A DNA stretch of 64,000 nucleotides from Oscillatoriales cyanobacterium Centralia_MAG_596 (GCA_021323955.1 JAJPKC010000561.1:8234-72233); one strand, 5' to 3'. Counted from the stretch's first letter, positions 3,350 through 57,760 are shown. Numbers and translations are program-made. Notes: a model not told the origin generated them from the sequence alone.

Positions 3350-4312
3350 GTGAGCACTCTAGCCCAAACCAACGCTTCACCCTTTCTGTTCCACGTCACC
3401 GATCGCGATATTCTCGCCGAGCACCTGGCGGACAAGCGGAGCGAGAACACGCGACGGGCATACGCCAGAGACGTGAAAGACTTTTTCGTGACCGTTGCCA
3501 ACCAGGAACCAACACCAACGCTGATTGGGCAGTTTTTGAGCCTGGAACGCGCGGCGGCCATCTCTCTGGTACTGAAGTACAAAGCGATCCTAATTGAGCG
3601 CAATCTGAGCGAGGCCACGGTCAATCGGCGGTTGTCTGCCCTCAAGTCCCTCGTGGCGTTTGCCCAAAAGGTCGATCGCTGCCAGTGGAGCCTGGAGCAA
3701 GTAGAGAGCGAGAAAGTGCAGAGCTACCGGGATACCAGCGGGATTAGTTTAGAGGCCTATCGCAAGCTGCTATCTGTGCCCAACCGAAATACGCTAGCAG
3801 GCAGACGCAATTACGCTATATTGCGGTTGCTCTGGGAAAATGCCCTGCGCCGCAATGAAATCAGCCAGACCAATGTGGGAGACCTGGATATCGAGGCTCG
3901 CACGCTGCAAATTTTTGGGAAGGGGAAGGGCACGCAGGCCGAATCCATCAGCCTCAGCACAGCAACAACAGAAGCGATCGTTGATTGGGTGCTTGCCAGA
4001 GATCCCGTTCCAGCGCCAAACGCCCCATTGTTCGTGGCGCTCGATCGCGCGCATTATGGCCACCGGCTATCGGGGAACGCCATTTACAATTTGGTAGTGG
4101 AGACGGCAACCAGCGCTGGTATTACCAAGCATCTCTCTCCACACCGGTGCCGCCACAGCGCCATCACGGCTGCACTAAATGCTACCAATGGTAATGTGCG
4201 GGAAGTTCAAAAACTGAGTCGCCATGCGCGGCTAGAAACTCTAATGATTTACGACGACAATAGAGCCAACGCCCAGGGCAAAGTCACCAACCTCTTAGCT
4301 GATCTGCTTTAA
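3350..4312 (+). CDS. tyrosine recombinase / integrase (XerC/D-like)
   Basis: SAM-like N-terminus (SENTRRAY, TVNRRLSALKS) and catalytic R (ALRRNEI), K (GKG), HxxR (HRCRH), H (RHA), Y (MIYD); start set at GTG 3350. Confidence 0.92.
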   Translation: MSTLAQTNASPFLFHVTDRDILAEHLADKRSENTRRAYARDVKDFFVTVANQEPTPTLIGQFLSLERAAAISLVLKYKAILIERNLSEATVNRRLSALKSLVAFAQKVDRCQWSLEQVESEKVQSYRDTSGISLEAYRKLLSVPNRNTLAGRRNYAILRLLWENALRRNEISQTNVGDLDIEARTLQIFGKGKGTQAESISLSTATTEAIVDWVLARDPVPAPNAPLFVALDRAHYGHRLSGNAIYNLVVETATSAGITKHLSPHRCRHSAITAALNATNGNVREVQKLSRHARLETLMIYDDNRANAQGKVTNLLADLL

Positions 4313-4365
4313 ACGTCGAACCCCCAGCATTGCTGCCAGGGGTTGGAACCAGATTTGGATCCGAC

Positions 4366-4686
4366 TTAGGCGGACGGGGCCGCCGCTGTTGCCGGAGGCT
4401 CAGAAGCAGGAGCAGGGGCAGCGACAGGAGCAGGAGCAGAAGCAGCGGCAGGAGGATTAAATTCTCCTTCCACTGCCTGTAGACCAGCCTCAATCACAGA
4501 TACCCGATCAACAAGCCCTGCAAGGGTTGACTTCAAAGTTTCCACGTCTGATTGCACTGCTTCAACGACCTGCTTTACAGCAGGGATTTCGGCAATTTGC
4601 TCTACCAGGGATTCAACCTTACCTTCAACATCATGCAGCTCTTCTGCCGCGCGTTCAAGAACATCTTTGAGCATGTGAGATACCAA
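4366..4686 (-). CDS. coiled-coil protein with Pro/Ala-rich tail
   Basis: Heptad pattern then PAAASAPAP; divergent from 4758. Confidence 0.6.
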   Translation of the reverse strand: MVSHMLKDVLERAAEELHDVEGKVESLVEQIAEIPAVKQVVEAVQSDVETLKSTLAGLVDRVSVIEAGLQAVEGEFNPPAAASAPAPVAAPAPASEPPATAAAPSA

Positions 4687-4718
4687 ATCACTGCTGTAGC
4701 TTTCCCGCAGTAAGAGCA

Positions 4719-4729
4719 GTAGGAACCCT
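4719..4729 (+). promoter_or_regulatory. J-box-like motif; a divergent partner lies at 4698-4708 on the minus strand
   Basis: GTAGGAACCCT (+) and GCGGGAAAGCT (-) between divergent genes. Confidence 0.4.
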
Positions 4730-4757
4730 AGAGCGTTCTGCCGGAATTGCCCCTATT

Positions 4758-5801
4758 ATGGCATCTGACCTTACGCCTGAATTAACCAAAACTGACTGGG
4801 AAACGCTCAGTGATTTTCGACTGCTGCGGCTGCAGTCGATGTTTGCGGATTTACAACTTTGCCATTTACAGATCTCCTGCCTGACCAACGATCTGCTGTT
4901 AATCTGCGATCGCGCCGCCTGGGATAAGATTCAACCGATTTTGGTTGATCTACGCATGGCGAGCTGGGCCGTTGCAGCCGCTGATAACTTGTCCATTTTT
5001 GTGGATGGACACTTGACTTATTGCGCCATGACGCAATTGCCCCAAACAGTTGAAGTTGTAACACGTACACTGGATACAATCGATTTAAGGATTGATCCTA
5101 TGGTTACTGCAACCCCAACCAGACCTCGCTCCATAAAGCCAGCAGAAAAACAGTTAACAGCCACTCCCGCAGCATCAAATGACCTGCCGGATTTTATTGA
5201 CCTGATGCCATTGGCTCAAAAATCAGGCATTCCGATTGAACACATCGCCGCTGAAATCAAGCAGCTGGGTGGTGTGGCTGGACGTGATCGCACGGGCACT
5301 TACATCACTACCGAGGACGCCCAACGCACCTGGGTTACCAATTACCTGAAGCGACTAGAGGCAGACTTCCTCTTGCCACCACAGGCGGAATCGGTACCAA
5401 GCGTCGAACCAACCGCAAAAGCCGCAAAACCGAGACGTGCTCGCACCGCAGCACAAGACAACGGCAAGGTTATGCCGAAAGAGCGGCGGTTGAAAGACTT
5501 TAGCAAAGCGCAGAGCTACTCAGTCACCATTGGTCGATTCCTGGATGCTCAAGGCTGGGATGGAAGCAACCCTCTGAGAGCACAGGTGTTCGAGGGCATT
5601 GCAGCGCTACCAGACAACTTTATGCCAAAAGCAAAGGGTAGCAGCCTTGCTGAGCGATCGCTCTACAAAATCTTGTCCAAGTATCCAGCTTCCAGTCGAG
5701 CCGCTGCTTGTAAAGGGTTGATCAAAACTGCCCGTGAGACGATTGGTCAGCAGCCCTCTGAGCAACCAGCAAGCCGGCCAGATACAGCCACGGTTGAATA
5801 A
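4758..5801 (+). CDS. hypothetical protein
   Basis: 347-aa ORF followed by a terminator. Confidence 0.7.
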   Translation: MASDLTPELTKTDWETLSDFRLLRLQSMFADLQLCHLQISCLTNDLLLICDRAAWDKIQPILVDLRMASWAVAAADNLSIFVDGHLTYCAMTQLPQTVEVVTRTLDTIDLRIDPMVTATPTRPRSIKPAEKQLTATPAASNDLPDFIDLMPLAQKSGIPIEHIAAEIKQLGGVAGRDRTGTYITTEDAQRTWVTNYLKRLEADFLLPPQAESVPSVEPTAKAAKPRRARTAAQDNGKVMPKERRLKDFSKAQSYSVTIGRFLDAQGWDGSNPLRAQVFEGIAALPDNFMPKAKGSSLAERSLYKILSKYPASSRAAACKGLIKTARETIGQQPSEQPASRPDTATVE

Positions 5802-5836
5802 GGAACACTAAGCTAGATTGAGTAAGATGCACTCTG

Positions 5837-5865: not shown

Positions 5866-5887
5866 TTTTGCGTACTCAAAAACTCAC
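5866..5887. repeat. 22-bp direct repeat, copy 1 (operator-like)
   Basis: TTTTGCGTACTCAAAAACTCAC, identical to 6199-6220, near-palindromic core. Confidence 0.85.
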
Positions 5888-5963
5888 AAGTTTGGATCAG
5901 CACTACATGTAAACCTTTAAAACCCTGAAACCCTAGAAGGCTGAAACCTTTTTAGGGAAAGCA

Positions 5964-6182
5964 ATGTCAGACGGCAAACCAGGTAGACCAAAAGGCAAGC
6001 GGTCTAACCCGAACTTTATTCAAATCACCTCGTACATCTCCAAGAAGACCTACCGAGCAGTCAAAATACGCTGTGCAGAGTTGGATATGAACCGCTCGGA
6101 TTTGATTGAGGAGTTACTTGAGGAATGGTTAGAACGCACAAAGCCCAAACGAAATAAGCGCATCCGTGGAGACAATGCTTGA
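5964..6182 (+). CDS. ribbon-helix-helix (CopG/ParG-like) DNA-binding protein
   Basis: FIQITSYISKKTYRAVKIRCAELDMNRSDLIEELLEEWL fits beta-alpha-alpha. Confidence 0.8.
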   Translation: MSDGKPGRPKGKRSNPNFIQITSYISKKTYRAVKIRCAELDMNRSDLIEELLEEWLERTKPKRNKRIRGDNA

Positions 6183-6198
6183 TAATGGCTTGATAATG

Positions 6199-6220
6199 TT
6201 TTGCGTACTCAAAAACTCAC
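6199..6220. repeat. 22-bp direct repeat, copy 2
   Basis: Identical to 5866-5887. Confidence 0.85.
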
Positions 6221-14076: not shown

Positions 14077-14407
14077 CTTTAAGACGATCGCAGAAACCTT
14101 CAAAACATCACCTCCCATCACACTTGAGGTCGATCCCATTTACCTCTTTGTTCTGGTGGGCACGGTGCAACTCGCGCTGCGGCATCCCGGCAATCGAGGC
14201 AAGAGCGCAGAACTGGCCCGACAAGCCGCGATCTCTTTTCAGCAGCGACTGGGTGAAATCAACCCAGAGATTGCAGCAGCGCTAGAGCAAGGCTGGCATC
14301 CAGAGTTTGATGTCACGAGTAAAGAGTATGACGCGATCGAGGCTGAAAACGAATGGGATGACACGCTGTATGACTTACCAGGCGACGCGGAGGATTGCCA
14401 TGAGTGA
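14063..14407 (+). CDS. hypothetical phage protein
   Basis: GGAGG upstream; VQLALRHPGN motif. Confidence 0.65.
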   Translation: MQTPDFKTIAETFKTSPPITLEVDPIYLFVLVGTVQLALRHPGNRGKSAELARQAAISFQQRLGEINPEIAAALEQGWHPEFDVTSKEYDAIEAENEWDDTLYDLPGDAEDCHE

Positions 14408-15086
14408 CCGCATAAAAGACCGACAGGAAGCCGCAAAGTGGGCCTACGAACTGATGCAGCGCCAAGACTGGTGCATTCTCGATACCGAAACTACGGGGCT
14501 GAGTCGAGACGCCCAAATCGTTGAGCTTGGGGTATTAGCACCCGACGAAACCGTTTTGCTGGATACGCTCGTTACTCCAACCGTTGAAATTGAGCCAGAG
14601 GCAGTACAGGTGCATGGCATCACTCGCGATCGCCTCGCTACACGCAACGCGCCCGCATTTGAAACTGTGTTCATGCCGCTCCTCAAAGCCGTTGGTAGAG
14701 GGGACGTGGTGATTTATAACGCCGAATTTGATATCAGGCTGATCCGGCAATCGATCAAGCCCTACGGTATTCAGTTGGCGTTTCCCACCAGCGATCACCG
14801 TGGATGCCGCATCTTCCCAAACGGCGGCGGCATTTATTGTGCGATGCATTGGTACTCCCAATGGGTTGGGGAGCTGCGGCACGACGGCGAGTACAAGTGG
14901 CAGCGGTTACCCGGTGGCGACCATAGCGCGATCGGCGATTGCAAAGCCGTGCTGCGCATCATCAGGCAGATGGCGGCTGATTGGGAGCACAGCCTTACCA
15001 AGGCGGCAGAACCAACGAGTGCTGAAGCGGTTGCTGCGGGGGCTGAAACGGCAACCGCGATCGAGTTTGACGATATCCCGTTTTGA
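14400..15086 (+). CDS. 3'-5' exonuclease (DEDDh, DnaQ-like)
   Basis: ExoI ILDTETTGL, ExoII YNAEFD, ExoIII HSAIGDC. Confidence 0.9.
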   Translation: MSDRIKDRQEAAKWAYELMQRQDWCILDTETTGLSRDAQIVELGVLAPDETVLLDTLVTPTVEIEPEAVQVHGITRDRLATRNAPAFETVFMPLLKAVGRGDVVIYNAEFDIRLIRQSIKPYGIQLAFPTSDHRGCRIFPNGGGIYCAMHWYSQWVGELRHDGEYKWQRLPGGDHSAIGDCKAVLRIIRQMAADWEHSLTKAAEPTSAEAVAAGAETATAIEFDDIPF

Positions 15087-20842: not shown

Positions 20843-21406
20843 CTAATTGCTAAGAGGAAACGAGATTGCCTGGAATCCGTTCCGGTCCAATAGCGAGCGC
20901 ATTGTCGTAATCTGGCTCTGGCTGAAGGTCTGGTTGAAGCCTTGGAGTGCCGCAAACAAATTACTAATACAGCTTTGCAATGCCGGCAGGCTTGGTGAGG
21001 GCGTCGTTAACGCGCTGACAAAATCGCCGTAAGCATTGGCGATCGGCAGGTTCTGATCACTGAGCGAACGCACAAACAGAAACACGCTAAGGCCGTCCGG
21101 TGATAGTAGCTCATTGTAAAGGCCGATATACTGCGGCTGTGGATCTGGTGCAGGGGTGTTAGCGGTTTCAAAGGTGGTTTGATACTGCGCCTTCTTTGCT
21201 AAGTAACCATCCCCTTCGGGCCAGGGCATCGCGTCAGCCCATTGACTGCTGCCATCAAAAAGTATATGCCGGATGTTGGGCACATATTCACGCCCAGTCG
21301 CCCCTTCTGGTAAAACGTAGCCTGGTTCCTGTTGTTGAAAAAACAGTAAGGGGAGGCATAACTCGTTGATGTAAATTAAACCATCGGGATGATGTCTGAA
21401 ACTCAT
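20843..21406 (-). CDS. putative tail fibre-associated / chaperone protein
   Basis: Last gene of the virion module, coupled to the fibre gene. Confidence 0.55.
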   Translation of the reverse strand: MSFRHHPDGLIYINELCLPLLFFQQQEPGYVLPEGATGREYVPNIRHILFDGSSQWADAMPWPEGDGYLAKKAQYQTTFETANTPAPDPQPQYIGLYNELLSPDGLSVFLFVRSLSDQNLPIANAYGDFVSALTTPSPSLPALQSCISNLFAALQGFNQTFSQSQITTMRSLLDRNGFQAISFPLSN

Positions 21407-22155
21407 CGCGCCCCTGCTGAAATAATAAAATGTTCGATTTGAGATGGCTGCATTGTATTGTGCGCCCCGCCCCCACCTGTACTGTTAGAAGTCTGACCGG
21501 TTGTTTGATTGGTGCCAGCTGCTTGGAATGACACAGTACCCCCAGTACCCATTGAGGTCTGTAGGGGAACGGGGTGAAAGTGGGATGGTAGCTCAGCCGT
21601 CGTCAGAGTGTGACTTTCTTCCCCAATCTGCGCGTGTTGTGTTCGGGCGGTCAAGCCGGAACCTGCGCCAGCGCTGATAAACCCTCGCCCCCTGACATCA
21701 GGCAGCGTCAGCCGACGATTGGCTGCATAATCACTGGCAGCGCTTGATCCACGACTGGCTGCGTTACCAGAGGAATCCAAGAGTGGGCATTGCGTGTTTG
21801 AATACTGGTTCCAGATGTGCGTGAACAGGGTCGCCGTCCAGGTAGCGGCGATCGCCGCGCCACTGCTGGCATTCCCGATCGTGCGAATGGTATCGCTGGT
21901 GAGATAGACCCACTTTCCATCGAAGTCGTCAAAGTAGCCCTGTGATAGACCAGTTGTGCCGGTGTAAAAATAGCCAACGCCGACTGTTCGTGTGTAAGTG
22001 CTGACATCCTGTCCAATACACACCACAACCCCACCACTGGTTTTGAGGTAGACTTTGCCGTCAGCCGCGTTAATTGCCAACTCACCGATTGCAAGCTGCG
22101 CCGTGGATGGCACGCTGCCAGCGTTTGTGGATCGTTTGAGCTGAATTGTACCCAT
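21403..22155 (-). CDS. tail fibre / tail-collar domain protein
   Basis: Mtd_N-like IQLKRS..GELAIN N-terminus; collar-like LTLPDVRGR..GEESHTLTTAELPSH..AHNTMQP. Confidence 0.75.
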   Translation of the reverse strand: MGTIQLKRSTNAGSVPSTAQLAIGELAINAADGKVYLKTSGGVVVCIGQDVSTYTRTVGVGYFYTGTTGLSQGYFDDFDGKWVYLTSDTIRTIGNASSGAAIAATWTATLFTHIWNQYSNTQCPLLDSSGNAASRGSSAASDYAANRRLTLPDVRGRGFISAGAGSGLTARTQHAQIGEESHTLTTAELPSHFHPVPLQTSMGTGGTVSFQAAGTNQTTGQTSNSTGGGGAHNTMQPSQIEHFIISAGAR

Positions 22156-23126
22156 TAGAAGGTGCCACCGTCGATCGTCGATGCGGGTGAGAGGTAATCT
22201 GTTCCGGCGACCGCTGCACTATAGGTTGTAGCCCCGTCACCCTTCACTAAGCCATTAATCACTGAACTGAGGCCCAAACCACCATTGGCAAAGCCCAGGA
22301 TGCCTGTCACAGCATTGGTGTTACCCAATGGCAGCGCGCCATAGCCGGCTGATCCAGACCCGTTGCTCAAAATGACCTGATTAGCGGTGGTTGAGCTTTT
22401 GATCGCGAGCTGGTTGGAGCCGTTCGCGTAGATGGTGACGTTATCAAACAGGACGTTCAGCGTGTTGACACTGCGCTGAATCGCCGTTCCAGCCACAATG
22501 CCACCAGCGCCGGGGAACGGGATGAAGTTCAGGCTCGTGGTGCCCAGCGTGATCGGGTCTTGCGTTTGCAGGAACCAGACCGTATCGGCGTTGCTGGTGC
22601 CTTCAGTAACGGTCACGATCATGCCGCTGGTCACATCGGCGGAAATGTTGGCATCGGCGGAGCGGGTGAGTGCTGACGATGCGCCATTCCAGACGTAAAT
22701 CCCATTTTGCGAGCCGGTTGTTTGCCCAAATAGCGCGATGCGATCAACGCCGCTATTGGTCAACGTGACCCCATCAAACGCCGCGCCGGGACTGGCAATA
22801 TTGACGTTGGTAGTGACAGCGACACGCACCGAGTCCTTAATGTCTTTGGCCTGCAGGATCGCCGCGATCGCCGCCTGTACATAGGCAGTGCTGGCAATCT
22901 GCGTGCTGTTGGTGCCCGTGCTTGCTGTGGGGCAGGTCGGTATGCCCGTAAATGCAGGCGAGGCTAGTTTGGCAAACACACCCGCACCACCGATCGCCTC
23001 GACAGTCGTATCTGATCGACCGACAAACAGGGTGTCTGATGCCTGCGAAAACGCCAATTCCCCAAACTGCAAGCCAGTGGGCGTATTGGTCGATTGTGAT
23101 CGCTTGATTTGTACTGTGTTAACCAT
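22155..23126 (-). CDS. tail fibre / receptor-binding protein
   Basis: Mtd_N-like VQIKRS..GELAFS; SVRVA..GQTTGSQNGIYVWNG..LTRSADA module seen in phage fibres. Confidence 0.7.
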   Translation of the reverse strand: MVNTVQIKRSQSTNTPTGLQFGELAFSQASDTLFVGRSDTTVEAIGGAGVFAKLASPAFTGIPTCPTASTGTNSTQIASTAYVQAAIAAILQAKDIKDSVRVAVTTNVNIASPGAAFDGVTLTNSGVDRIALFGQTTGSQNGIYVWNGASSALTRSADANISADVTSGMIVTVTEGTSNADTVWFLQTQDPITLGTTSLNFIPFPGAGGIVAGTAIQRSVNTLNVLFDNVTIYANGSNQLAIKSSTTANQVILSNGSGSAGYGALPLGNTNAVTGILGFANGGLGLSSVINGLVKGDGATTYSAAVAGTDYLSPASTIDGGTF

Positions 23127-23440
23127 CAGAATTCGCCTCCATCAAGGCTCGTGGTTGTGAAATAGCGAATCCCGTTACTGACCAGCAATCCCGCACCAGG
23201 AGCAGCGCTTTCGAGACTGTCTAGCGTGTCTGTGTGAGGCTGCTTTGTGCTGAGTACTGCCTCCAGGTCAGTCTGTTGGCTTAAATCCCCGGTGATGTTC
23301 CCCCAACGAGAATCGGCGTTTTTCCCTGGGACTCCGGCTGTGCTGTGAATTGCCGTTACTTTTGCCACCGGACTGCTGTGAACGATCGCCACCTCCGGTC
23401 GCACAATCACAGTTGTTGTTTGGCGTACAGTTTCGGTCAT
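23126..23440 (-). CDS. virion-associated hypothetical protein
   Basis: WGNITGDLSQQTDL motif common in fibre-associated proteins. Confidence 0.55.
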   Translation of the reverse strand: MTETVRQTTTVIVRPEVAIVHSSPVAKVTAIHSTAGVPGKNADSRWGNITGDLSQQTDLEAVLSTKQPHTDTLDSLESAAPGAGLLVSNGIRYFTTTSLDGGEF

Positions 23441-24054
23441 GGCGTCACAGTCGCGGGGGGCAGAATCTGGGGATAGACTACAATCAGCCCTTTGTAGGGA
23501 CTTTCAACCCGATCATCGGGATAGATAATTTCCATCTCCCAGTCATAATCATTTGACTGCCGTTGCCGGGTTTGTAGAACCTCATCAGTGATGATGGTCC
23601 CAACGGACAAGTTGGCAGGCAATAAGCTGGTCTGGGTGTGGAGCAACATCAGGTCGATCCGCCCACTTAGTGGATCCGTATCGAAGACAGGTGTCAATTG
23701 GCTGGGACTGGTGGAAGTCTGCAATTTGCCCTTAATGGGGGCGCTGGCTGTACAGCCCGTCAGATCCGCACAGATCCAGCCTTTGGTTTTCTTGGCAATG
23801 GGTAGTGGGGTGGGATCAATCGGCAAAGACACCGCACCCACGTCCACCGCTGCACTTACGGTCAGCACCAGGTCATCCCCTAGCAGCAGCTTCCTGCCAC
23901 TGGCGATCGCCTGCCGGATGGGCTCTACCGAAATCGCTACTGCCCCAGCCAATACATCAGTCGTCGTGCGAATCACGTCTCCCTGCAACAGCGTTACAGA
24001 AAGGACGTAACTGGCACCTTGCTTGATGTACAGGTTGAGGTCAGCAGGAATCAC
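23437..24054 (-). CDS. virion-associated protein (BppU-like beta sandwich)
   Basis: LNLYIKQGASY..DLTGCTASAPI..GRIDLML..YDWEMEI pattern. Confidence 0.55.
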   Translation of the reverse strand: MIPADLNLYIKQGASYVLSVTLLQGDVIRTTTDVLAGAVAISVEPIRQAIASGRKLLLGDDLVLTVSAAVDVGAVSLPIDPTPLPIAKKTKGWICADLTGCTASAPIKGKLQTSTSPSQLTPVFDTDPLSGRIDLMLLHTQTSLLPANLSVGTIITDEVLQTRQRQSNDYDWEMEIIYPDDRVESPYKGLIVVYPQILPPATVTP

Positions 24055-36582: not shown

Positions 36583-36769
36583 TGCCTTTAATTTTGCCCA
36601 ACCGCACCAAACCTATAAAAAGCAAAACCGCCGCACAGGAGAGATTAATGATCGCGTAGGGATTGAGCGGGTCGTGTGCTTTCAGCACATTGGCAATCCA
36701 GCCGCTAAAACTACTGCCAGCCATGACGAAATCTAAGATGGCGATTCGCTGATTTGACCAGTTAAACAT
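36554..36769 (-). CDS. small two-TM membrane protein (holin candidate)
   Basis: Two hydrophobic segments and a charged C-terminus. Confidence 0.45.
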   Translation of the reverse strand: MFNWSNQRIAILDFVMAGSSFSGWIANVLKAHDPLNPYAIINLSCAAVLLFIGLVRLGKIKGIEAEDNDEF

Positions 36770-37220
36770 TTGCCGACTCCTGTGAGTTTGCTAGTTTGAG
36801 CAAGGCACCCGCGATCGCGTTAATCGTCCACTCCATTGCCATACACTCAGTCTGTTCACTTGAGTCTGGTTCAAACGGTGCCATGTGCAGATGCAGCAAC
36901 TCATGGATCAGCGTCTCTTCAAGGTTGTAGGGTCGCATTGGGTTCTGCTTAACAGCATCTTCCGGTGTAACCAGCTTAATGTCTGCCGTTTTCTCGGTTA
37001 TGCGCCAGTGAATACAGCCCTGCGCTTGCGTACTGCTCATATCCATGGCAGGCACAACTTTTACAGTTACATCCCAATCAGCCAGCCTCAGCCGTTGCTG
37101 CCATTCTCGGCATTTCTGCTGCATCTGCTGTTCGAGCGTGAGTTCTGGTGGTGAGCACTTCTGCTGTGTCTGCTGTTCAAGTGCGATGTCCTGGTGGTGC
37201 AATTGTTTGGGTTCAGTCAT
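36762..37220 (-). CDS. zincin-like metallopeptidase
   Basis: EETLIHELLHLH (HExxH) with downstream E. Confidence 0.7.
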   Translation of the reverse strand: MTEPKQLHHQDIALEQQTQQKCSPPELTLEQQMQQKCREWQQRLRLADWDVTVKVVPAMDMSSTQAQGCIHWRITEKTADIKLVTPEDAVKQNPMRPYNLEETLIHELLHLHMAPFEPDSSEQTECMAMEWTINAIAGALLKLANSQESANV

Positions 37221-37238
37221 CGTCTCAGAGCATAATAG

Positions 37239-37255
37239 TGCCCTGGTGTTCCCGC
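37239..37255 (-). promoter_or_regulatory. putative late promoter (extended J-box-like)
   Basis: GCGGGAACACCAGGGCA. Confidence 0.7.
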
Positions 37256-37260
37256 AGCGG

Positions 37261-37884
37261 TTAGTTCAGAGTACGCTTGCTCGACTGTGCCGCACGTTTG
37301 GCAAAGCCCTTAAACTGCTCCACTACTTCCTCTGCCTGTTGATTTGCCTCTGCACATTCCTGCATGATTTGCCGAGCGACTTGCCGTAGGCGATCGATGA
37401 CTTCCTGACGATCAGACAGATGTTCCCGGTTGTACTGCCACCAACGGCGATCGGTCTCCACCAGAAAATCGATCGTGCCTGTTGAGACCAGCAAATCATT
37501 GACCCCTTTGTGAGTCGATGCGGGAAAGGTTTGGAGTAATTCTTCCCGGTACGCCTGGGCGCGATCGTGTGCTTCTTGGGGCGCAATCATCCCTGAAAGG
37601 CAATCAAACGCTTTCTGCATCACTGGGTCTACCCAGGTCAGCAGTACACCGCAAAATTTGTCGATTTCATCGTCTGGTGATGCCTCTACCCATTCCTGTG
37701 GTGGGCGATCACGAATGGCATCCAACACACTCTCATGGGAGTAGCGCACCAGCGCTGTCGTCACCAGCACCATGATGTTTTCGGGCACTTTGGGATATCG
37801 TCGCTTCAGCCCCTCGCAGTAAGTCTCTCCACTCTTGACCGAGTGCAGCCAGATCTGGTGCTGAACGTTAAACGGAATGCTCAT
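37261..37884 (-). CDS. hypothetical protein
   Basis: 207-aa helical ORF. Confidence 0.65.
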   Translation of the reverse strand: MSIPFNVQHQIWLHSVKSGETYCEGLKRRYPKVPENIMVLVTTALVRYSHESVLDAIRDRPPQEWVEASPDDEIDKFCGVLLTWVDPVMQKAFDCLSGMIAPQEAHDRAQAYREELLQTFPASTHKGVNDLLVSTGTIDFLVETDRRWWQYNREHLSDRQEVIDRLRQVARQIMQECAEANQQAEEVVEQFKGFAKRAAQSSKRTLN

Positions 37885-38012
37885 GGCACGTCTTTCTTAA
37901 AGCCCTTCAATGATGGCAGTTTTCGCTTGGGCTGACCCAGCTTCAATTTCTCCAGCCGTCGTGCTTCCTTGCTCCGCCGCGCCGATCGATTCCAGTCCCA
38001 GTTGCCAGACAT

Positions 38013-38858
38013 CTACGTTTTTGCCTTAAAGTCACTGCAGTTTTCCCCATTGCCGTAAGGATGCATACCACAAACCAGCTTGGTGCCGCGGTAGGTATGG
38101 CCGTGCAAGTATTGACATCCATTACAGAGTGCAGGCTGTTTGATAAGTGAGTGAGATTGCGCCTGATTGAATGCATTAAGCACGGCTCGCCCTTGACTGA
38201 ATTCTTCTAGCGCTTCAGCGCGATCGGGTAGCAGCCCAGCACGATCTAACCGTCGATAGTAGGAGTCAGGAGCTTCATGGTTGTACCGGAATGTAGAGAG
38301 CGATTGCCCCCCCTCAATCAGCAGTTCTTCGCGTGTCGCATTGCGCAGATATTGGGCAGTGGATACTGTGCACCTATACCTGACGGCTTCGCCTCGTTGA
38401 GCACTCATTTCAAATGATTCTGGCCGTAGCCGTAGGATCACGTTGAGCGCTAAGTCACCAGCATCTCTGTGATAGCGCCATTCCAAGATGTCGCCAAAAA
38501 TATCTCCTTCCTGGAGCCGTAAAAAAGTCCGGATGGGTGCTCGAAACTCAGCAGCCAAAACAGTGAATCGAATGATGATTGCGTCGTTGTTGAGTGTGAA
38601 ATCTAACAGTGGGAAGGCCAGCCAGTGGGGGCCAAGACGGACTTGGCATAGACCCGGATCGCCCAGGCAGAGTTCCCAGTGTTGTAAATGCAGGAATCTT
38701 GGTGCGGGGATGGATCTGCTTTGTATCGAAGGCTGAGTCCGATCAAAATCAGCCCCCATCCGCGGCTGTATCCTGTTCAGAATCATGCTCTCATAATCGT
38801 GTATGAGCTCTGACTGCCGGCGCAATTCCTCGCCCGATGGCTCTTGAAAATCAGGCAT
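38013..38858 (-). CDS. hypothetical protein with C-terminal Cys/His cluster
   Basis: CNGCQYLHG..VCGMHPYG..CSDF. Confidence 0.6.
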   Translation of the reverse strand: MPDFQEPSGEELRRQSELIHDYESMILNRIQPRMGADFDRTQPSIQSRSIPAPRFLHLQHWELCLGDPGLCQVRLGPHWLAFPLLDFTLNNDAIIIRFTVLAAEFRAPIRTFLRLQEGDIFGDILEWRYHRDAGDLALNVILRLRPESFEMSAQRGEAVRYRCTVSTAQYLRNATREELLIEGGQSLSTFRYNHEAPDSYYRRLDRAGLLPDRAEALEEFSQGRAVLNAFNQAQSHSLIKQPALCNGCQYLHGHTYRGTKLVCGMHPYGNGENCSDFKAKT

Positions 38859-39267
38859 ACTCCGCCCTCGATGTTTGAAACCATCCTACGATTTTAGTCC
38901 CAGCGCTCTCCTCCATCACTGCCCCAATTCCCTCCCTGCCGTAAGGTGGGTTAATCGGAACATTGAGGTAAAAGAAGCCTGGAGTGCCGCTCCAAGTGGC
39001 TACTGCCCAATTTTTGGGCAGAATGCTGAGTGGCAATTTCATCGGCTCCAGACAATAGCCTTCTAGATACAGTGCCGTCTCGTCAATTTCTGGAGCGCGC
39101 TGAATGGTATTGCCATAAGCGGGTACCTTGGCCTCAAGCATGGCGGTGACTCTGATGCTAGTAGTCTCCGCGATCGCATTGCCCACCTCATCAAAAGTAA
39201 TGTCGCCCGTCGGCACCTCAAAAGTGAGTGTGGTGTTGCGAACAAAATCAGGGAATGGGGTTGCCAT
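38851..39267 (-). CDS. head closure / stopper-like protein
   Basis: Size, beta-rich pattern and position. Confidence 0.55.
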   Translation of the reverse strand: MATPFPDFVRNTTLTFEVPTGDITFDEVGNAIAETTSIRVTAMLEAKVPAYGNTIQRAPEIDETALYLEGYCLEPMKLPLSILPKNWAVATWSGTPGFFYLNVPINPPYGREGIGAVMEESAGTKIVGWFQTSRAEYA

Positions 39268-39334
39268 ACAGAAAAGCCCTCTACTCAGAGGGCAGAATAT
39301 CGTTTGAATTTATTGCTCTAGCGTTCCCCGTTCC

Positions 39335-39610
39335 CTACTCAGGGTTGCGGATTTGTGCGATCGCCGCTTCAAACCATTGCAATTGCTCTGGCGATAGGTC
39401 TCGTTGCACAGTGCGGAATGCCCAACGGGCATCCAGGTCAGGGCTAGTAACAGCGATCTGGCGCAAGACCTGGCGCAACAGATCTACGTCTTGCTGGCGA
39501 ATGGCATTGCCCATCAGCAGTGCCAGTTCGCCCAATATTTGGTTAGCTTCGTCCGAGGGTACCATTGCCATAGGTTGAGGGAACTGGGAGTTCCAGATAA
39601 AGTGCTGCAC
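39335..39610 (-). CDS. hypothetical protein
   Basis: Short helical ORF; overlaps upstream gene, start uncertain. Confidence 0.45.
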   Translation of the reverse strand: MQHFIWNSQFPQPMAMVPSDEANQILGELALLMGNAIRQQDVDLLRQVLRQIAVTSPDLDARWAFRTVQRDLSPEQLQWFEAAIAQIRNPE

Positions 39611-39956
39611 AAAGTTCCTGCACCCAAAGCGCTTCGAGCTGGTCCATGCCGTCTGACTTGGCTCCTGGTTGCCACTCTAGTACATCTGCTTTAATCAGTG
39701 CACTACTGGCATCACCCAAGGTGGCCATCCGTTTCGCCCGGTTGTTGTCCAGGTTGTCCAGGATTTCCTGTACCGTAGCGATCGCGTCAGGGGCTTGCAG
39801 CTCCAGACGGCTCATTGATAAGCGGATGATATCCAGATAGGTCTTCTCCGCAGGCACTTTCAGTGCCCGACGAATGCGCTCCAGGTCGGTGGGGATAGAG
39901 GTGGTGTTCCAGGGCATGGATAAGGGTGGGGAGTGGGGAGTGGGGGAACAGTTCAA
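39543..39956 (-). CDS. head-tail adaptor protein
   Basis: LIKADVLEW motif; likely start ATG 39917 (MPWN). Confidence 0.65.
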   Translation of the reverse strand: MNCSPTPHSPPLSMPWNTTSIPTDLERIRRALKVPAEKTYLDIIRLSMSRLELQAPDAIATVQEILDNLDNNRAKRMATLGDASSALIKADVLEWQPGAKSDGMDQLEALWVQELCAALYLELPVPSTYGNGTLGRS

Positions 39957-39971
39957 AACTTAGAACATTTC

Positions 39972-40637
39972 TCACGCGGCTAGAGTTCCCCGGTTGAGGA
40001 TGGTTGGGTTGGGTCGGTTGCTGCGTCGGTAATAGATCTGACATTTGCAGTGCTGCCCACACGCGCAGTTAGTGCCTGGAGGGACAACCTGGCTCGTCGG
40101 TCGCCATTCGCCATTGGTGCTGTGCTCAACACACGATCCGCAATGCCGTGCCTGTGGATCGAGCGATCGCAGCGCTTCATCAAACCCTTCATCCTCCCGG
40201 CTGATTTGCTCTGCCCGGTGAAAGGTAGTGTTAATCGAATCGGCGTAGCTGCCCGCACGTCTTAATGCCTGCTCTCGGGTTAACTTACCTTCGTACAGCG
40301 CCCGTGCAAAGCCGTCCACGTATTGATATTGGCGTCGTAGTTGATATCCGATTGCACCGAAATGCTGTGATTGAGCACGAGCCTGACCACCCGCGCCCAA
40401 AATGCCTATTCGCAAATGGCTATCCCGTAGGCTTTCGCTCATCCGTAGCTGCCATTCTGTCAGCGTGATCTGCTGGTTTGTCATCAAACGAGTATGAGCT
40501 TGCAAACGTACCTTGAGCTGCTGTTGTTCTTGATCTACCAGGTTGCGGATCACTTCTTTGCCCACGAATTTGCCATCGCTGCGGACATACCGACCAGCAC
40601 GGGGATTGTAAGAAATTTCTTCGGTGCTAAACGGCAT
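39972..40637 (-). CDS. minor head morphogenesis protein (MuF / SPP1 gp7-like)
   Basis: RHCGSC..VPPGTNCACGQHCKCQIYY terminal Cys cluster; near portal. Confidence 0.7.
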   Translation of the reverse strand: MPFSTEEISYNPRAGRYVRSDGKFVGKEVIRNLVDQEQQQLKVRLQAHTRLMTNQQITLTEWQLRMSESLRDSHLRIGILGAGGQARAQSQHFGAIGYQLRRQYQYVDGFARALYEGKLTREQALRRAGSYADSINTTFHRAEQISREDEGFDEALRSLDPQARHCGSCVEHSTNGEWRPTSQVVPPGTNCACGQHCKCQIYYRRSNRPNPTILNRGTLAA

Positions 40638-40640
40638 GGT

Positions 40641-41033
40641 TCACTCGCATGGGGGTGGACTTTGGCCTAAACCGCCAGCCTCAATCGCCGGTTTATCGGT
40701 TGGCTGTGCGAAGACGCAACCTCGGAACCCTGGCACCAGCCAGCCTTTGGGATGCGCCTCCGTATCACCAGCGGTTACGCTGCCCGTGACCGCATAAACA
40801 TAATTGGGGCTTTCTAGCGCAATGCCTGCTTGTAGATCGTTAGCATTCGTGGCAAAGGCGTTGTGCTGCAAAAAGTAAAGTAGCTGGGCCTGGTTTGCTG
40901 CTCTGAGAGTGGTATATGCCTCAGCAGTTTTAGCTTTGTTTGCCTGAGTGAGCCACAGTGGGAGCGCGATCGCCGACAGCAACCCAATGATGATGACAAC
41001 GACAAGCAATTCAATCAGCGAAAAGCCTTTCAT
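40641..41033 (-). CDS. type IV pilin (Pilin_GH-like) with prepilin peptidase site
   Basis: MKG|FSLIELLVVVIIIGLLSAIALP..QANKAK..EA..NQAQ..YF..F..SPNYVY matches cyanobacterial PilA-like pilins. Confidence 0.9.
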   Translation of the reverse strand: MKGFSLIELLVVVIIIGLLSAIALPLWLTQANKAKTAEAYTTLRAANQAQLLYFLQHNAFATNANDLQAGIALESPNYVYAVTGSVTAGDTEAHPKGWLVPGFRGCVFAQPTDKPAIEAGGLGQSPPPCE

Positions 41034-41056
41034 GGAGCAGTAGTAGCAACTGCCTC

Positions 41057-41067
41057 AGCATTCCTAC
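41057..41067 (-). promoter_or_regulatory. J-box-like promoter of the pilin gene
   Basis: GTAGGAATGCT right after a terminator, 23 nt upstream of ATG. Confidence 0.55.
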
Positions 41068-41095
41068 AAAAAACCCACCGGGCTGCGCGGTGGGT
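41068..41095 (-). terminator. intrinsic terminator upstream of the pilin gene
   Basis: ACCCACCG-N7-CGGTGGGT then TTTTT on the minus strand. Confidence 0.8.
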
Positions 41096-41138
41096 AAGGT
41101 AAACCCATACAGGAGGCAATATGCTGATTGCAGCCGAC

Positions 41139-41312
41139 CTAGCGTTCCCTCACCTTTGCCTTGAGATAACGGCGTAAGCGTGGGTTCGCGGTGGTGATTG
41201 CCCGGTCCAGATCAGCCTGAGTGAAGTTAGAGAGCTTCATCAACGTTTCAAGCGCGATTGGCTGTCCTAATGGTTTGACTATTTGCTGACCCGGTTCTGT
41301 GGGTGCGCTCAT
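41139..41312 (-). CDS. 57-aa hypothetical protein (below the ORF-track cutoff)
   Basis: MSAPTEPGQQ..RRYLKAKVRER*; ATGA-coupled to 41309-41488. Confidence 0.5.
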   Translation of the reverse strand: MSAPTEPGQQIVKPLGQPIALETLMKLSNFTQADLDRAITTANPRLRRYLKAKVRER

Positions 41313-41488
41313 TTCTTACCGAAAATTGTTTTGAAGGCAGAGAGGATGGTAGAGAGCAGCGAAAATCCAGCCGCTACTTTGCTGGTTGTAGCAGCAGCTT
41401 TAGCGCCGACTACACCGCTTTCCGCCACTCCTTCCGTCGCTTGTGAGGCCAGTTCAGCAGCGCTTGCTGCTTTGTCTAAGTTGTCCAT
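41309..41488 (-). CDS. 59-aa Ala-rich peptide with amphipathic C-terminal helix
   Basis: MDNLDKAASAAELASQ..GFSLLSTILSAFKTIFGKK*. Confidence 0.55.
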   Translation of the reverse strand: MDNLDKAASAAELASQATEGVAESGVVGAKAAATTSKVAAGFSLLSTILSAFKTIFGKK

Positions 41489-41535
41489 CGATTTTAGTTC
41501 CTAACGAATTGGCTGTACAGTCCGCTGTGGTATTC

Positions 41536-43038
41536 CTACGCGGCAACGGGCAACGTTTGAACGGCATGTCGTGCTGCTTCGGCTGCGATCGCGTCGGGTG
41601 TAGGCAACACGGTCTGGTTCTGGGCCTCAAGATCACCAATTTGCCGTAACTCTTCCTTGATATCCGTGTCTGGTGGCAGCCATTTCCGCTCTTGCAGCAT
41701 TTGTAACCCGAGCTGGTTGCTAATCTTGACCCCCATCGCATCCAAAATGGTCTGTACTTCCTGGGGACTCGCAGGCGTTTGCAGAATAGACTCGTTGACA
41801 GTGATCGTGCCGCCCTGGTCTTCTCCGGTGTACTGCACCCAGAGCGCAAAAAGTCGCTGCACAGTGGATTCCTTCCGACGTGCCATGTTTTTCAGGCTGC
41901 ACTGGGTTTGGGCAGTGTCCATCACCACTTCCGTTGCCGTTTTTGCCGCTTCCCCGCCAGTCAAGAAGGCTAGGGACATCCGATCCATGGAGCGTTCCAG
42001 CTTTTCAATATCGGTTTGGGTGGCATTAATGGCATTGCCCGTTGGCTCCGCAAAGAAAAAGTCCCCGTCTGCGGGGATGTCTACAACAGAGTTGGGACCG
42101 ATGATCAGCTTGACCACGCCTTTCAGCAGATCAGCGAGGTTTTTGATCAATCCTTTACGCACGGGCACAGGTAGATTGCATTTATGAATCACCTCATTGA
42201 GGCTCGATCGTTTCTGATAATGCTCAATATTCAACTGAGCCAGATTGAGAAACGGAGGCTGACTTTCAAACCATTTGCTATCGCTAACCGAGTACCAGAC
42301 AAACGGCACAACTTCTAAACCTGTTGCGCCGGATAGCTCCGGTACTAAAACCTTCTGATATTTGCCGCCCTGGATCTGTACCAGTTCATAAACATCAAAT
42401 CTGCCAGGGGTTAGCACCCGATAGTAAGTTTTGGTTTCGACGCCATAATCATCTACTGCTACCAGGCGGCTTTCCTGAATTGTTAAGCGTTGAATGATCG
42501 GCTTACCTTGCTCATAGATAATGCTCCAGTTAAGGATGTTGCGTCGATCGACGGCAACGAGGTACGGTCGTAGCGCATAGTTTTGCTCGTCAGCCGCACT
42601 TTGGATCAGTGGGTTGCCATTTTCATCGGTGGGTTGTGGCGGATGCTCCACCAGAATGCCCATCCCGCCGTCCCGCAGTACTGTCTCATCCTGGTCTGTC
42701 AGAAATGATTCAATGCTGCTGCCTTGCAGGTCGATGTCGTCGCGTGCAGCGGCGATCGACGGTGCCACATCGTCAGATAGAACAAACTCAGATAACAGTC
42801 CGGCGTGACCCTTCAGCGCTGGCTTAAAGCGCGAGTCGAACTGTGTCCGGGCAAGACGGTTTTTGTACGCAAGCGGTGGTTCTTCCTCTTCTTTAGAGAG
42901 GTAATCGCCTTTGCAGCCCTTTAGCTCCTGCCACACATCCCAAACGATTTGCAGTTCGTTTGCCGCGTCGAGATACGTGGGGTGCAGGAAAGAAGGCAGC
43001 GATGGATCTTTGGTGAGTGCGGGGGAAGAGGGATTCAT
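41536..43038 (-). CDS. portal protein (DUF4055-type)
   Basis: YLSKEEEEPPLAYKNRLART..RRNILNW..PPFLNLAQLNIEHYQKRS..AKTATE. Confidence 0.9.
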   Translation of the reverse strand: MNPSSPALTKDPSLPSFLHPTYLDAANELQIVWDVWQELKGCKGDYLSKEEEEPPLAYKNRLARTQFDSRFKPALKGHAGLLSEFVLSDDVAPSIAAARDDIDLQGSSIESFLTDQDETVLRDGGMGILVEHPPQPTDENGNPLIQSAADEQNYALRPYLVAVDRRNILNWSIIYEQGKPIIQRLTIQESRLVAVDDYGVETKTYYRVLTPGRFDVYELVQIQGGKYQKVLVPELSGATGLEVVPFVWYSVSDSKWFESQPPFLNLAQLNIEHYQKRSSLNEVIHKCNLPVPVRKGLIKNLADLLKGVVKLIIGPNSVVDIPADGDFFFAEPTGNAINATQTDIEKLERSMDRMSLAFLTGGEAAKTATEVVMDTAQTQCSLKNMARRKESTVQRLFALWVQYTGEDQGGTITVNESILQTPASPQEVQTILDAMGVKISNQLGLQMLQERKWLPPDTDIKEELRQIGDLEAQNQTVLPTPDAIAAEAARHAVQTLPVAA

Positions 43039-55875: not shown

Positions 55876-56166
55876 ATGAACAAAGCTGAATTAGTTGATG
55901 CGATCGTGGCAAAGGCTTCGGTTACCAAAAAGCAAGCAGACGAAATTCTCAGCGCAGCCGTCGATGCCATCATCGAAACGGTGTCAACTGGGGACAAAGT
56001 GACCTTGGTGGGTTTCGGTACGTTTGAATCTAGAGAGCGGCAGGCACGGGAGGGACGTAATCCCTCTACCGGGAAACCGATTCAAATCCCAGCAACCAAG
56101 GTGCCAGCTTTTTCTGCTGGCAAGCTGTTTAAAGAGAAAGTCGCACCAACCAAAGCATCAGTTTAA
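55876..56166 (+). CDS. hup: histone-like DNA-binding protein HU
   Basis: MNKAELVDAI..VTLVGFGTFE..REGRNPSTG..IPA.KVPAFSAGKLFKEKV. Confidence 0.95.
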   Translation: MNKAELVDAIVAKASVTKKQADEILSAAVDAIIETVSTGDKVTLVGFGTFESRERQAREGRNPSTGKPIQIPATKVPAFSAGKLFKEKVAPTKASV

Positions 56167-56170: not shown

Positions 56171-56222
56171 CAAGCATTCAAGTATTCAGACAGTCTTGAA
56201 TGCTTGAATGCTTGAATGCAAG
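56171..56222. repeat. ATTCAAGC octamer array downstream of the par operon (centromere-like)
   Basis: caagc ATTCAAGT attcaga facing TCTTGAAT GCTTGAAT GCTTGAAT. Confidence 0.85.
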
Positions 56223-56242: not shown

Positions 56243-56719
56243 CTACAAACCAAGCTTTTCAGCCGTGCGCTTAGCCCGGGTGATTGCAGGTTTCAATTCT
56301 TGTGCTCGTGCGCGTCGGGCATGGTGGATTCTCGCTTCAGCGATCGCGTCTTCCAGCAACCCTGGTCTATCTTGCGCCACGGCCCACAATCCTTGCAGAA
56401 GTGTTTCTGGTGTAACGCCTGCCTGGTCAGCCGCCTGCTGGATTTGGCGTTTATACCCCTCTTCAACGCGCAACTGAAAGTTAACGACCTTTGGCAAGGC
56501 TGCCAGTTCTCGCTCCAGTGCCGAGATGCCAAAGTCTACAGGTGCGGCAGTTAAGTTGTTTGACCGTTCTTTGACAGGCATTGATTTAGCAGGTGTTGAA
56601 TCAGCTTCTGTGGCTGGACTACCTGTATTTGATTGTAGCGAGGCGGACACCTCGTCAACTCGTTTTTCTACAGTTGGCCGAGTGCGGTTCATGAAGCGAT
56701 CGGCTGCGGTCGGTTTCAT
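56243..56719 (-). CDS. putative centromere-binding adaptor (ParG/ParB type Ib-like, RHH)
   Basis: Coupled to parA; VNFQLRVEEGYKRQIQQAADQAGVTPETLLQ fits RHH. Confidence 0.65.
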   Translation of the reverse strand: MKPTAADRFMNRTRPTVEKRVDEVSASLQSNTGSPATEADSTPAKSMPVKERSNNLTAAPVDFGISALERELAALPKVVNFQLRVEEGYKRQIQQAADQAGVTPETLLQGLWAVAQDRPGLLEDAIAEARIHHARRARAQELKPAITRAKRTAEKLGL

Positions 56720-57531
56720 ACAGGGACTACCTCACTATGAATGGCTGGTACGTACTTGCTCAGACGCTCTAACAGCACGTCGAAAGGCGCTTCCAGCTCC
56801 GCTTTATCGGCATCAAGCTCAGAAGGCAATTGTCCATAATTGAGAGCCTTTTGATAGATAACGGACTCAACTACTGAGGGCAGTATCGTTGCGCCAATGA
56901 AGCTCTCCATCTTGGCAAGCGTGCTCGAGGCCTCACCTGTAAGATGCAATCCAACCACTCGTGCCCGGAAAGGCAGAACGCCAATCAGTTCACCGTCAAA
57001 CGCGTCTCCGTCACGACATTCTTCCAGCAGCGCCCAGGTCTCGGTTAATGACCCCAGCCCTTTCGCAACGGCCTCGGCTGGAATGACGACCACATCTGCC
57101 GCACCGATCGCAGTCAGATTGATGTGATTCTTCTGCGGTGGCGAGTCAATCATAATCAGCCCAAAATCCTGCATGACAGGCTCCAGGCGTTTTTTCAATA
57201 CACGTGAGCAATTCGCTGACGAAGCCAGGTAATGCTGAGCATTGACCAAGGCTCGATCCGAAGGGACGAGAAAGAGATTTTCGCGATCGGGAACAGGGTA
57301 AATCGCGTCCTCAATCGAGCATTTGTTTGTGATGACTTCTAGCAGTGTGGGCTGATTTTCCACTTCAACGCCCAGAAGGTCGGTCAAATTCCGTTGAGGA
57401 TCGCCGTCGATTAGTAGGGTTGGTATACCGAGCTTAGACACTTTCAATCCAATCATATAGGCGGTCAGAGTCTTGCCCTGTCCTCCGCTCAACGACAGCG
57501 ACAGCGCGATCGTTGCTTGGTTGTTTGGCAT
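56716..57531 (-). CDS. parA: ParA/Soj partition ATPase
   Basis: Deviant Walker A SLSGGQGKT, LIDGDPQRNLT, IMIDSPP; start ATG 57531. Confidence 0.92.
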   Translation of the reverse strand: MPNNQATIALSLSLSGGQGKTLTAYMIGLKVSKLGIPTLLIDGDPQRNLTDLLGVEVENQPTLLEVITNKCSIEDAIYPVPDRENLFLVPSDRALVNAQHYLASSANCSRVLKKRLEPVMQDFGLIMIDSPPQKNHINLTAIGAADVVVIPAEAVAKGLGSLTETWALLEECRDGDAFDGELIGVLPFRARVVGLHLTGEASSTLAKMESFIGATILPSVVESVIYQKALNYGQLPSELDADKAELEAPFDVLLERLSKYVPAIHSEVVPV

Positions 57532-57592
57532 ATTGCATCCTTGCACTGATGAATGCATGTAAGTTTGCAGTGTTGTGATCTTATATTCAAAG

Positions 57593-57625
57593 TTGCTTGA
57601 ATGCAAGCATTCAAGCATTCAAGCA
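57593..57625. repeat. ATTCAAGC array upstream of parA
   Basis: GCTTGAAT gcaagc ATTCAAGC ATTCAAGC. Confidence 0.85.
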
Positions 57626-57662
57626 GCTAGGACTAGAAGTCGCCATGAATGAGGATAACAAG

Positions 57663-57693
57663 CCCAACTGGGGACAATTTGTCCCCAGTTGGG
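57663..57693. repeat. 31-bp palindrome (15-bp perfect arms, 1-nt centre)
   Basis: CCCAACTGGGGACAA-T-TTGTCCCCAGTTGGG. Confidence 0.9.
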
Positions 57694-57720
57694 AACGTCC
57701 ACTGTTAGAACTTTTGACGC

Positions 57721-57760
57721 ATTCAAGCATTCAAGCATTCAAGCATTCAAGTATTCAAGC
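57721..57760. repeat. 5 x ATTCAAG(C/T) tandem array
   Basis: ATTCAAGC x3, ATTCAAGT, ATTCAAGC. Confidence 0.9.

Follow-up and report, generated by a model that had tools for sequence, protein, structure and literature searches.

The stretch of DNA studied here (hereafter the window) comprises 64,000 nucleotides of Oscillatoriales cyanobacterium Centralia_MAG_596 (GCA_021323955.1), and it belongs to an element that is, on balance, probably a temperate siphovirus of a Leptolyngbyaceae cyanobacterium which persists as a low-copy plasmid without integration, i.e., a phage-plasmid. Genes for a virion, for cyanobacterial plasmid maintenance and for a LexA-type repressor are found together on one molecule assembled without host DNA, and relatives of the element keep this combination of phage and maintenance genes. 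The three predicted plasmid backbone functions, namely a CyRepA1 replicase, an McdA-like ATPase with its McdB partner and a recombinase, are all of cyanobacterial plasmid type. Taking phage-plasmids in the operational sense (PMC7969092), the element has a complete virion and packaging set, the terminase being intact in its sister genome, as well as replication genes (CyRepA1) and partition genes (McdA-like ParA and McdB) on one replicon; its extrachromosomal state is seen at the assembly level only, in an 81.3-kb contig without host DNA and in the circular sister.

The window corresponds to bases 8234-72233 of contig JAJPKC010000561.1 (C32; 73,426 bp), the longest contig of a fragmented metagenome bin (704 contigs, 6.96 Mb, 92% complete), and coordinates are window positions unless they are marked as belonging to another sequence. 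Since Leptolyngbya sp. FACHB-36 belongs to the same family as the bin genome, the host is taken to be a Leptolyngbyaceae cyanobacterium; the GC content of C32 (52.2%) is close to that of the bin (52.8%). Open reading frames (ORFs) were called across all of C32 and scanned against Pfam, PHROGs and NCBIfam, while plasmid comparisons were made against the PLSDB plasmid collection. A scan of IMG/VR yielded the sister genome (REL, IMGVR_UViG_3300034134_000022, 89,480 bp); a third relative is a 70.5-kb contig of GCA_037025045.1 (79% identity in CyRepA1), and the fourth (L161) is a 68.8-kb Logan contig of SRR33230366. The loci of three Logan and ENA records were examined by walking the contigs neighbour by neighbour. 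The initial annotation of this DNA, made from the sequence alone, had proposed an episomal prophage spanning positions 3350-57760: the main features it placed there are present, and the element itself runs past both sides of that span. Its CyRepA1-type primase-helicase, HU protein, Xer-like recombinase and near-complete siphophage module were all recovered in the family searches described below.

Replication is assigned to a 999-aa primase-helicase (9672-12671, plus strand) with DUF3854 and helicase regions. It belongs to the CyRepA1 family both by the curated cutoff (NCBIfam NF042913, 446.2 bits against 200) and by its N-terminal DUF3854 domain (PF12965, 142.9 bits against a cutoff of 23, E = 6.6e-42), and it aligns over 98% of its length, with 44% identity, to annotated CyRepA1 proteins of Tolypothrix, Nostoc and Gloeocapsopsis plasmids. 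We therefore regard it as a predicted plasmid replication initiator; autonomous replication has been demonstrated for Slr7037 and CyRepA2 (PMC10079941). A tree of 61 homologues groups this protein with its eight nearest in a single clade (support 100), phage context being confirmed for only some of the nine. The clade branches amid proteins named from Leptolyngbya, Oculatella, Trichocoleus, Stenomitos and Pseudanabaena, a position that fits capture of the replicase from plasmids of related hosts. When the full-length protein is compared with the phage collection, only partial helicase matches are obtained (31-49% of the query, 20-26% identity). The helicase half (residues ~310-780) matches phrog_4913 ('replication', 1.4e-31) and is remotely similar to RepA of the N15-like phage-plasmids phiHAP-1, VP882 and VP585, which suggests that cyanobacterial plasmid Rep proteins and phage-plasmid RepA share ancestry.

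Upstream of the replicase, a small ribbon-helix-helix (RHH)-like gene (5964-6182, plus strand; RHH_1 at 18.7 bits, under the Pfam cutoff of 20.5) is flanked by two exact 22-bp direct repeats (5866-5887 and 6199-6220) detected in a repeat scan. A similar repeat motif flanks the RHH gene in another relative (L132), and the region 5866..6220 is a candidate control region of the replicase. The gene order recombinase - g26 - RHH-like - g28 - g29 - CyRepA1 recurs in more distant relatives (57% identity in CyRepA1), and the module from recombinase to CyRepA1 is also syntenic in a metagenome fragment (84%). The same early part of the element encodes a DdrB-like single-strand DNA-binding protein (703..1179, plus strand; Pfam DdrB 6.3e-10; 89% in the sister) in the early/replication region and an RNase T/DnaQ-like exonuclease (14307..15086, plus strand; Pfam RNase_T 1.5e-10; 86% in relative L144) in the replication module.

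The partition locus lies at the other side of the window. It encodes on the minus strand an McdA-like (type 1) ParA ATPase at 56716..57531 (AAA_31 2.8e-28; PDB 6NOO, E = 1.4e-53); the ORF was called as 56716-57618, the probable true start being 57531. As in type 1 McdA-like proteins, the Walker A motif reads SGGQGKT, without the signature lysine, and the mid-protein lysine equivalent to K151 is kept (AVAKG against ASTKG in the 6NOO alignment). Directly downstream, with a start overlapping the end of the ATPase gene by 4 bases, is the gene for a 158-aa adaptor (56243..56719, minus strand) assigned to the McdB family by the precomputed Pfam match PF26392; its alignment with PDB 6NOY is full-length but weak (E = 0.022). 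A ParA with an RHH adaptor and repeat arrays had been proposed for this locus, and the ATPase and the arrays hold good. An RHH fold, as in the ParG/omega-type adaptors of type Ib partition systems, found no support: the McdB-family adaptor has no match to an RHH family in Pfam, and a Foldseek search of its AlphaFold2 model against the PDB gave nothing. The model, built from 9 sequences, is helical and of moderate confidence (pLDDT 69); the topology of the crystallised McdB-like homologue is strand-helix-helix-coiled coil (PMC6582323). No carboxysome family is present among the Pfam matches of C32, and the neighbours of the pair are HU and phage genes. The best matches of the ATPase in the plasmid collection (45-48%) are all on cyanobacterial plasmids, and a 29-kb plasmid of Tolypothrix PCC 7601 has both CyRepA1 and this type of ParA.

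Three arrays of 8-bp units surround the two genes. The downstream array (56171..56222) consists of inverted GCATTCAA / CTTGAATG units, while upstream of parA there are an inverted array (57593-57625) and one of five tandem units (57721-57760); nine of the ten exact ATTCAAGC octamers in the window fall in these arrays (56.2-57.76 kb). The region 57593..57760 is a candidate centromere/operator. In the fourth relative the order is terL, sigma factor, McdA (80%), McdB (76%), HU and portal (80%), with the same GCATTCAA/CTTGAATG arrays on either side of mcdAB. With the proteins diverged by 20-24%, the persistence of the arrays at both positions speaks for a functional DNA site; conserved 8-mer arrays bracketing the McdAB-like pair suggest a DNA cargo site. 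They are a candidate specific site for an McdB-like protein, though the 6NOY homologue was reported without DNA binding (PMC6582323). In the sister genome a 206-aa ParA and a ParB (ParB_N, HTH_ParB) stand beside HU exactly at the McdAB position, and in the third relative a ParA-ParB pair adjoins the DdrB-like gene. Partition function is thus retained across the relatives while the type of cassette is swapped. The HU-type DNA-bending protein (55876..56166, plus strand; Bac_DNA_binding 3.6e-31) stays beside the partition cassette in both the sister and the fourth relative, and its gene has 77% nucleotide identity to a host HU gene on bin contig C499.

The third backbone gene encodes a tyrosine recombinase of Xer-like architecture (3260..4312, plus strand), with a Phage_integrase domain (1.2e-19) and an N-terminal Phage_int_SAM_1 domain. 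This architecture is common to XerC and XerD, and the protein falls below the equivalog cutoffs of both (113.5 against 335 for XerC, 97.2 against 330 for XerD). In the plasmid collection it is closest (52-59%, ~90% coverage) to single genes carried by many cyanobacterial plasmids, which range from 33 to 290 kb, and homologues are found in the sister (79%) and in the relatives G062 (58%) and L145 (54%). The gene is interior, with conserved phage genes on either side, and away from any host junction; in a search for attB, no stretch of at least 16 nt near it was common to other contigs of the bin. Its plasmid-borne nearest matches and interior position fit a role as multimer resolvase.

As to the form in which the element exists, the assemblies describe a ring-like molecule. 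Phage genes reach both ends of C32, which has no terminal overlap and no end sequence common to other contigs. In the sister genome, which is closely related (CyRepA1 87%, capsid 91%), the portal gene is split across the contig ends with an exact 127-bp overlap, so that its assembly closes into a circle; its completeness according to CheckV is 100%. C32 is syntenic with it all round and ends at ~64.1 and 72.0 kb of its map, and bin contig C531 (6.3 kb) holds genes that fill most of the gap. An ENA contig of 81,309 bp (ERZ27279670 k141_274870) encodes an McdB protein identical to that of the window; in this contig C32 corresponds to positions 2-73427 (identical over the 18,951 bp compared, with an exact 200-base match at the far end) and C531 to 73432-79710. 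No host gene was found on this contig, and its ends map to positions 72011 (within terL) and 70687 (within the terS-like gene) of the sister. The sole open junction therefore lies in packaging genes and cannot be an attachment site. Overall, the element is predicted to be of about 83 kb with a circular map. The check called for by the initial annotation, for circularity or host flanks, thus finds no host junction in 81.3 kb and ends only 1.3 kb apart on the map of the circular sister, the reverse of the chromosomal integration that would have refuted it, and its idea of an episomal prophage gains support from this host-free, ring-like assembly and the plasmid-type genes. In addition, two assemblies break at the same spots, within terS-terL and 67 bp upstream of the LexA gene, and a Logan contig of SRR5579883 begins exactly at base 1 of C32; these common break points may reflect population variants or a packaging-related step in depth.

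The virion module (20843..43038, PHROG and Pfam matches) is read from the minus strand. It includes a fibre-like protein (22155-23126, PHROG/Pfam), the major capsid (head) protein (24889-25824; phrog_212, 1.5e-81; 91% in the sister), a scaffold (26280-27116; phrog_206), an 814-aa tail protein (30018-32462, PHROG/Pfam), a pilin-like protein (40641-41033, PHROG/Pfam) and the portal (41536-43038; phrog_145, 2e-86; DUF4055), and is followed on the same strand by a 3156-aa tape measure protein (45977-55447; TMP_3, 7e-26, residues 1810-1997; 72% to the sister). All the structural genes read open and are 65-91% conserved in the complete sister. The large terminase lies outside the window on the right-hand side, where it is severed by the end of C32; the sister has it intact (534 aa), and the truncation is due to the contig end and not to mutation. 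In the sister the tape measure gene (13645-23754 of that genome) lies between the homologues of g68 and g67, with chaperone-like genes on one side and distal tail genes on the other, and in the fourth relative the portal side comes after HU without an intervening tape measure gene. Here it is displaced by 12 kb, between the portal-side genes and HU. The displacement is probably a real rearrangement, because the ENA assembly has the identical gene order.

A temperate life style is suggested by a full-length LexA homologue, a hallmark of temperate phages, encoded left of the window (68-670 of C32; 1133-1735 of L155; 168.7 bits against a cutoff of 111). By inspection, the protein keeps the Ala-Gly, Ser and Lys motifs of the cleavage site and catalytic residues. 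This is the sole full-length LexA in the 92%-complete bin; the gene is absent from the sister, and G062 has two copies. A group 3 (SigF-like) sigma factor is encoded at 59558..60304 on the minus strand (Sigma70_r2/r4; 72% in the sister and in the fourth relative), its best NCBIfam match being to the SigF subfamily, under the cutoff.

The composition of the element resembles that of the host. C32 has 78 HIP1 sites (GCGATCGC), i.e., 1.06/kb compared with 1.09/kb in the rest of the bin and 59 times the expectation from composition, and its tetranucleotide correlation with the host (0.956) is mid-range among host contigs. The observed/expected ratio of HIP1 is 50 in the Leptolyngbya boryana plasmid pLBY and 35-104 in relatives of the element; in the two isolated cyanophages of this small control set it is 4.4 (Microcystis phage Mwe-JY26), or there are no sites at all in 49 kb (Leptolyngbya phage Lbo402-yong5). 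Moreover, a host-type heptamer tandem repeat (AAGGCTA/TGAAGGA) common to more than 20 other contigs of the bin lies between the capsid gene and the next gene (24839..24887). Taken with the host-like HU gene, these signs fit, without proving, a replicon long resident in the host lineage.

From these elements the following cycle can be proposed. The injected DNA would circularise, aided by the plasmid-type tyrosine recombinase, which would later resolve multimers. The CyRepA1 primase-helicase would initiate replication under the control of the small RHH-like gene and the flanking 22-bp repeats. The McdA-like ATPase would bind the nucleoid, and the McdB-family adaptor, seated on the 8-bp GCATTCAA arrays, would ride the ATPase gradient by a diffusion ratchet, so that copies are spaced and inherited; the adjacent HU perhaps bends the DNA to help the partition complex. 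The phage LexA would repress the lytic genes until DNA damage leads to its self-cleavage, in an SOS-type switch, whereupon the phage sigma factor would drive the late genes and the terminase would package DNA from concatemers.

Several observations weigh against a phage-plasmid. The ring is unclosed in this sample, ~1.3 kb in terS-terL being absent, and a ring-like assembly is also expected from replicating lytic DNA or circularly permuted virion DNA. No origin was identified, the repeat search giving only ordinary short repeats besides the 22-bp pair, and no convincing dif/lox-like target site of the recombinase emerged when the sequence upstream of it was scanned for palindromes and by alignment. 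No lysis genes were identified in the element, and the tape measure gene occupies an unusual position in this genome. As for the relatives, the distant structural relatives G062 and G063 are without CyRepA1 and ParA, G063 being classed as a provirus, and a relative with 54% identity in CyRepA1 (L147) adjoins an XisA-like recombinase and host genes; integration thus occurs in the wider group. In L147 (Logan SRR17591874, 149.6-kb contig; locus at 16251-22970) the XisA-like recombinase is followed by ordinary host genes, which gives the locus the appearance of an integrated element whose replication module is related.

Such relatives, together with the integrase catalytic domain of the recombinase and the fact that some known phage-plasmids carry integrases too (PMC4490671), speak for an integrating temperate phage. 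Its recombinase would be an integrase, the assemblies would show only the excised or replicating form, and rep and par would have their role in lytic replication or in a transient carrier state. We consider this distinctly unlikely, as there is no host junction in 81.3 kb and no match to other bin contigs near the recombinase, whose closest matches in the plasmid collection sit on plasmids, and as the integrated relatives are without this recombinase. A virulent or chronic phage with captured plasmid genes, using CyRepA1 as its replicative primase-helicase and binned because of its abundance in infected cells, would agree with the use by phages of primase-helicases of this architecture (phrog_4913), with the ParA/ParB-like genes known in phages without a proven plasmid state, and with circular-map contigs, which are typical of lytic phage assemblies. 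Also this explanation appears unlikely. It accounts poorly for the predicted self-cleaving LexA-type repressor, for a centromere-like repeat system conserved in the fourth relative, for the replacement of one partition type by another at one locus, and for a HIP1 density at host level, unlike that of the two isolated cyanophages; one of these two, Lbo402-yong5, may be a temperate phage too, given the integrase annotated in its genome.

It is very unlikely that the element is a plasmid with a defective or domesticated prophage, or with a gene-transfer-agent-like particle set, producing no infectious virions: the displacement of the tape measure from the tail genes and the incomplete terminase of this assembly would agree with it, but the structural genes are open and conserved in a complete sister with an intact terminase, and the cut in the terminase gene is the contig end. 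An assembly chimera of plasmid and phage might be suspected in a bin fragmented into 704 contigs, and is hardly credible given that the same linkage is present in independent records, namely the IMG/VR sister, the ENA contig and a Logan contig from another run; it was rejected on the agreement of these independent assemblies. A linear plasmid of the N15 type was likewise rejected, as there is no protelomerase among the Pfam matches of the called ORFs and the sister is circular.

Phage-plasmids are well documented in enterobacteria, vibrios, Firmicutes and other bacteria. Like P1, N15 and SSU5 (PMC7969092), the persisting siphovirus that we propose combines on one replicon a virion set, a replication initiator, a ParA partition system with a repeat centromere and a site-specific recombinase, and its capsid belongs to a broad family found on many enterobacterial and Acinetobacter plasmid records (~31%). 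It differs from them in having no close sequence kinship, a cyanobacterial host and maintenance genes of the CyRepA1 and McdAB-like types, and its plasmid state is a predicted one. The likeness to P1 and N15 drawn in the initial annotation is hence one of function; in sequence it is confined to the remote helicase-RepA similarity and the broad capsid family. With CyRepA1 plasmids (pSYSA with Slr7037, pAQ1; PMC10079941, PMC9978351) the element shares the architecture of an N-terminal DUF3854 and a helicase, but identity to the nearest is 44% and the gene here is part of the early region of a phage, in the company of genes for an exonuclease, a DdrB-like protein and the virion. The partition genes resemble the McdA/McdB-like pair of a Cyanothece PCC 7424 plasmid (6NOO, 6NOY; PMC6582323, PMC7182216) in the SGGQGKT motif, the K151 equivalent and the McdB-family gene of ~158 aa after the ATPase. 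According to a proposal by MacCready et al., plasmid-borne pairs of this kind serve the partition of plasmids, not of carboxysomes. Here, in contrast, the pair is on a phage genome and bracketed by conserved 8-bp arrays, whereas the crystallised McdB-like protein was reported without DNA binding (PMC6582323).

Among isolated phages, the portal is closest to those of the cyanosiphoviruses S-CBS2, S-CRES1-3 and PSS2 (34-37%), and the capsid to that of Microcystis phage Mwe-JY26 (53%). Their genomes are of similar size (71-107 kb), but the identities are low and none has a CyRepA1 match. In PLSDB there is no plasmid record with this capsid or portal above ~39%, and no cyanobacterial plasmid with this phage. 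The main text of a phage-plasmid census does not mention cyanobacteria (PMC7969092); the nearest reported cyanobacterial case is a 'phage-like' Microcystis plasmid with few phage genes (PMC12510456), and uncultured glacial phage scaffolds with ParAB have been reported (PMC4490671). We found no cyanobacterial phage-plasmid with a full virion module described in the searchable literature. The 44-kb L. boryana plasmid pLBY (NZ_AP014641.1, record linear) has a protelomerase-family gene together with an McdA-like ATPase and an McdB-like protein (773-2581, 14836-16010), the latter being the one cited in the McdB structure paper; pLBY is possibly an N15-style linear replicon using the same partition type.

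The element is a concrete candidate for non-integrative lysogeny in cyanobacteria, and it would show how plasmid replicons and partition cassettes move between plasmids and phages in these organisms. It also offers a candidate DNA site for the McdB-like proteins of plasmids, and its rep, par and packaging genes could be used to build vectors or transducing particles for filamentous cyanobacteria. A wider proposal, on which we are evenly divided, is that there is a lineage of true cyanobacterial phage-plasmids with at least four members in public data, temperate tailed phages kept at low copy by a CyRepA1 replicon and interchangeable partition cassettes, the GCATTCAA arrays being the centromere of plasmid-type McdB. 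If this were true, episomal lysogeny could partly explain the rarity of intact integrated prophages in cyanobacterial genomes, and the GCATTCAA centromere would link the carboxysome-positioning McdAB, by origin, to a system for partitioning DNA.

Some genes outside these modules deserve mention. The small genes at 61-63 kb had been called plasmid-type; they match no Pfam or PHROG family, as is the case for most early genes, so that this label is not upheld. Their sole plasmid-like link is to host contig C502, where homologues of two of them adjoin a parB fragment. Left of the window, a cluster 80-91% conserved in the sister (~2200-5300 of C32; 3278-6300 of L155) comprises genes for a radical-SAM QueE-like protein, a 152-aa protein, a ParB_N-like protein of 293 aa and a 319-aa protein, the radical-SAM match alone being firm; it may be a 7-deazaguanine-type DNA base-modification module. 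The pilin-like gene lies amid head-proximal genes and is of type IV (N_methyl motif, Pilin_GH); it is absent from the sister. Conversely, the sister carries, inserted ahead of its tape measure gene (9973-12939 of that genome), a gene absent from this element, which encodes a 988-aa protein with Laminin_G_3, OAA-family lectin (Pfam SBD), ricin-type lectin and PLAT domains.

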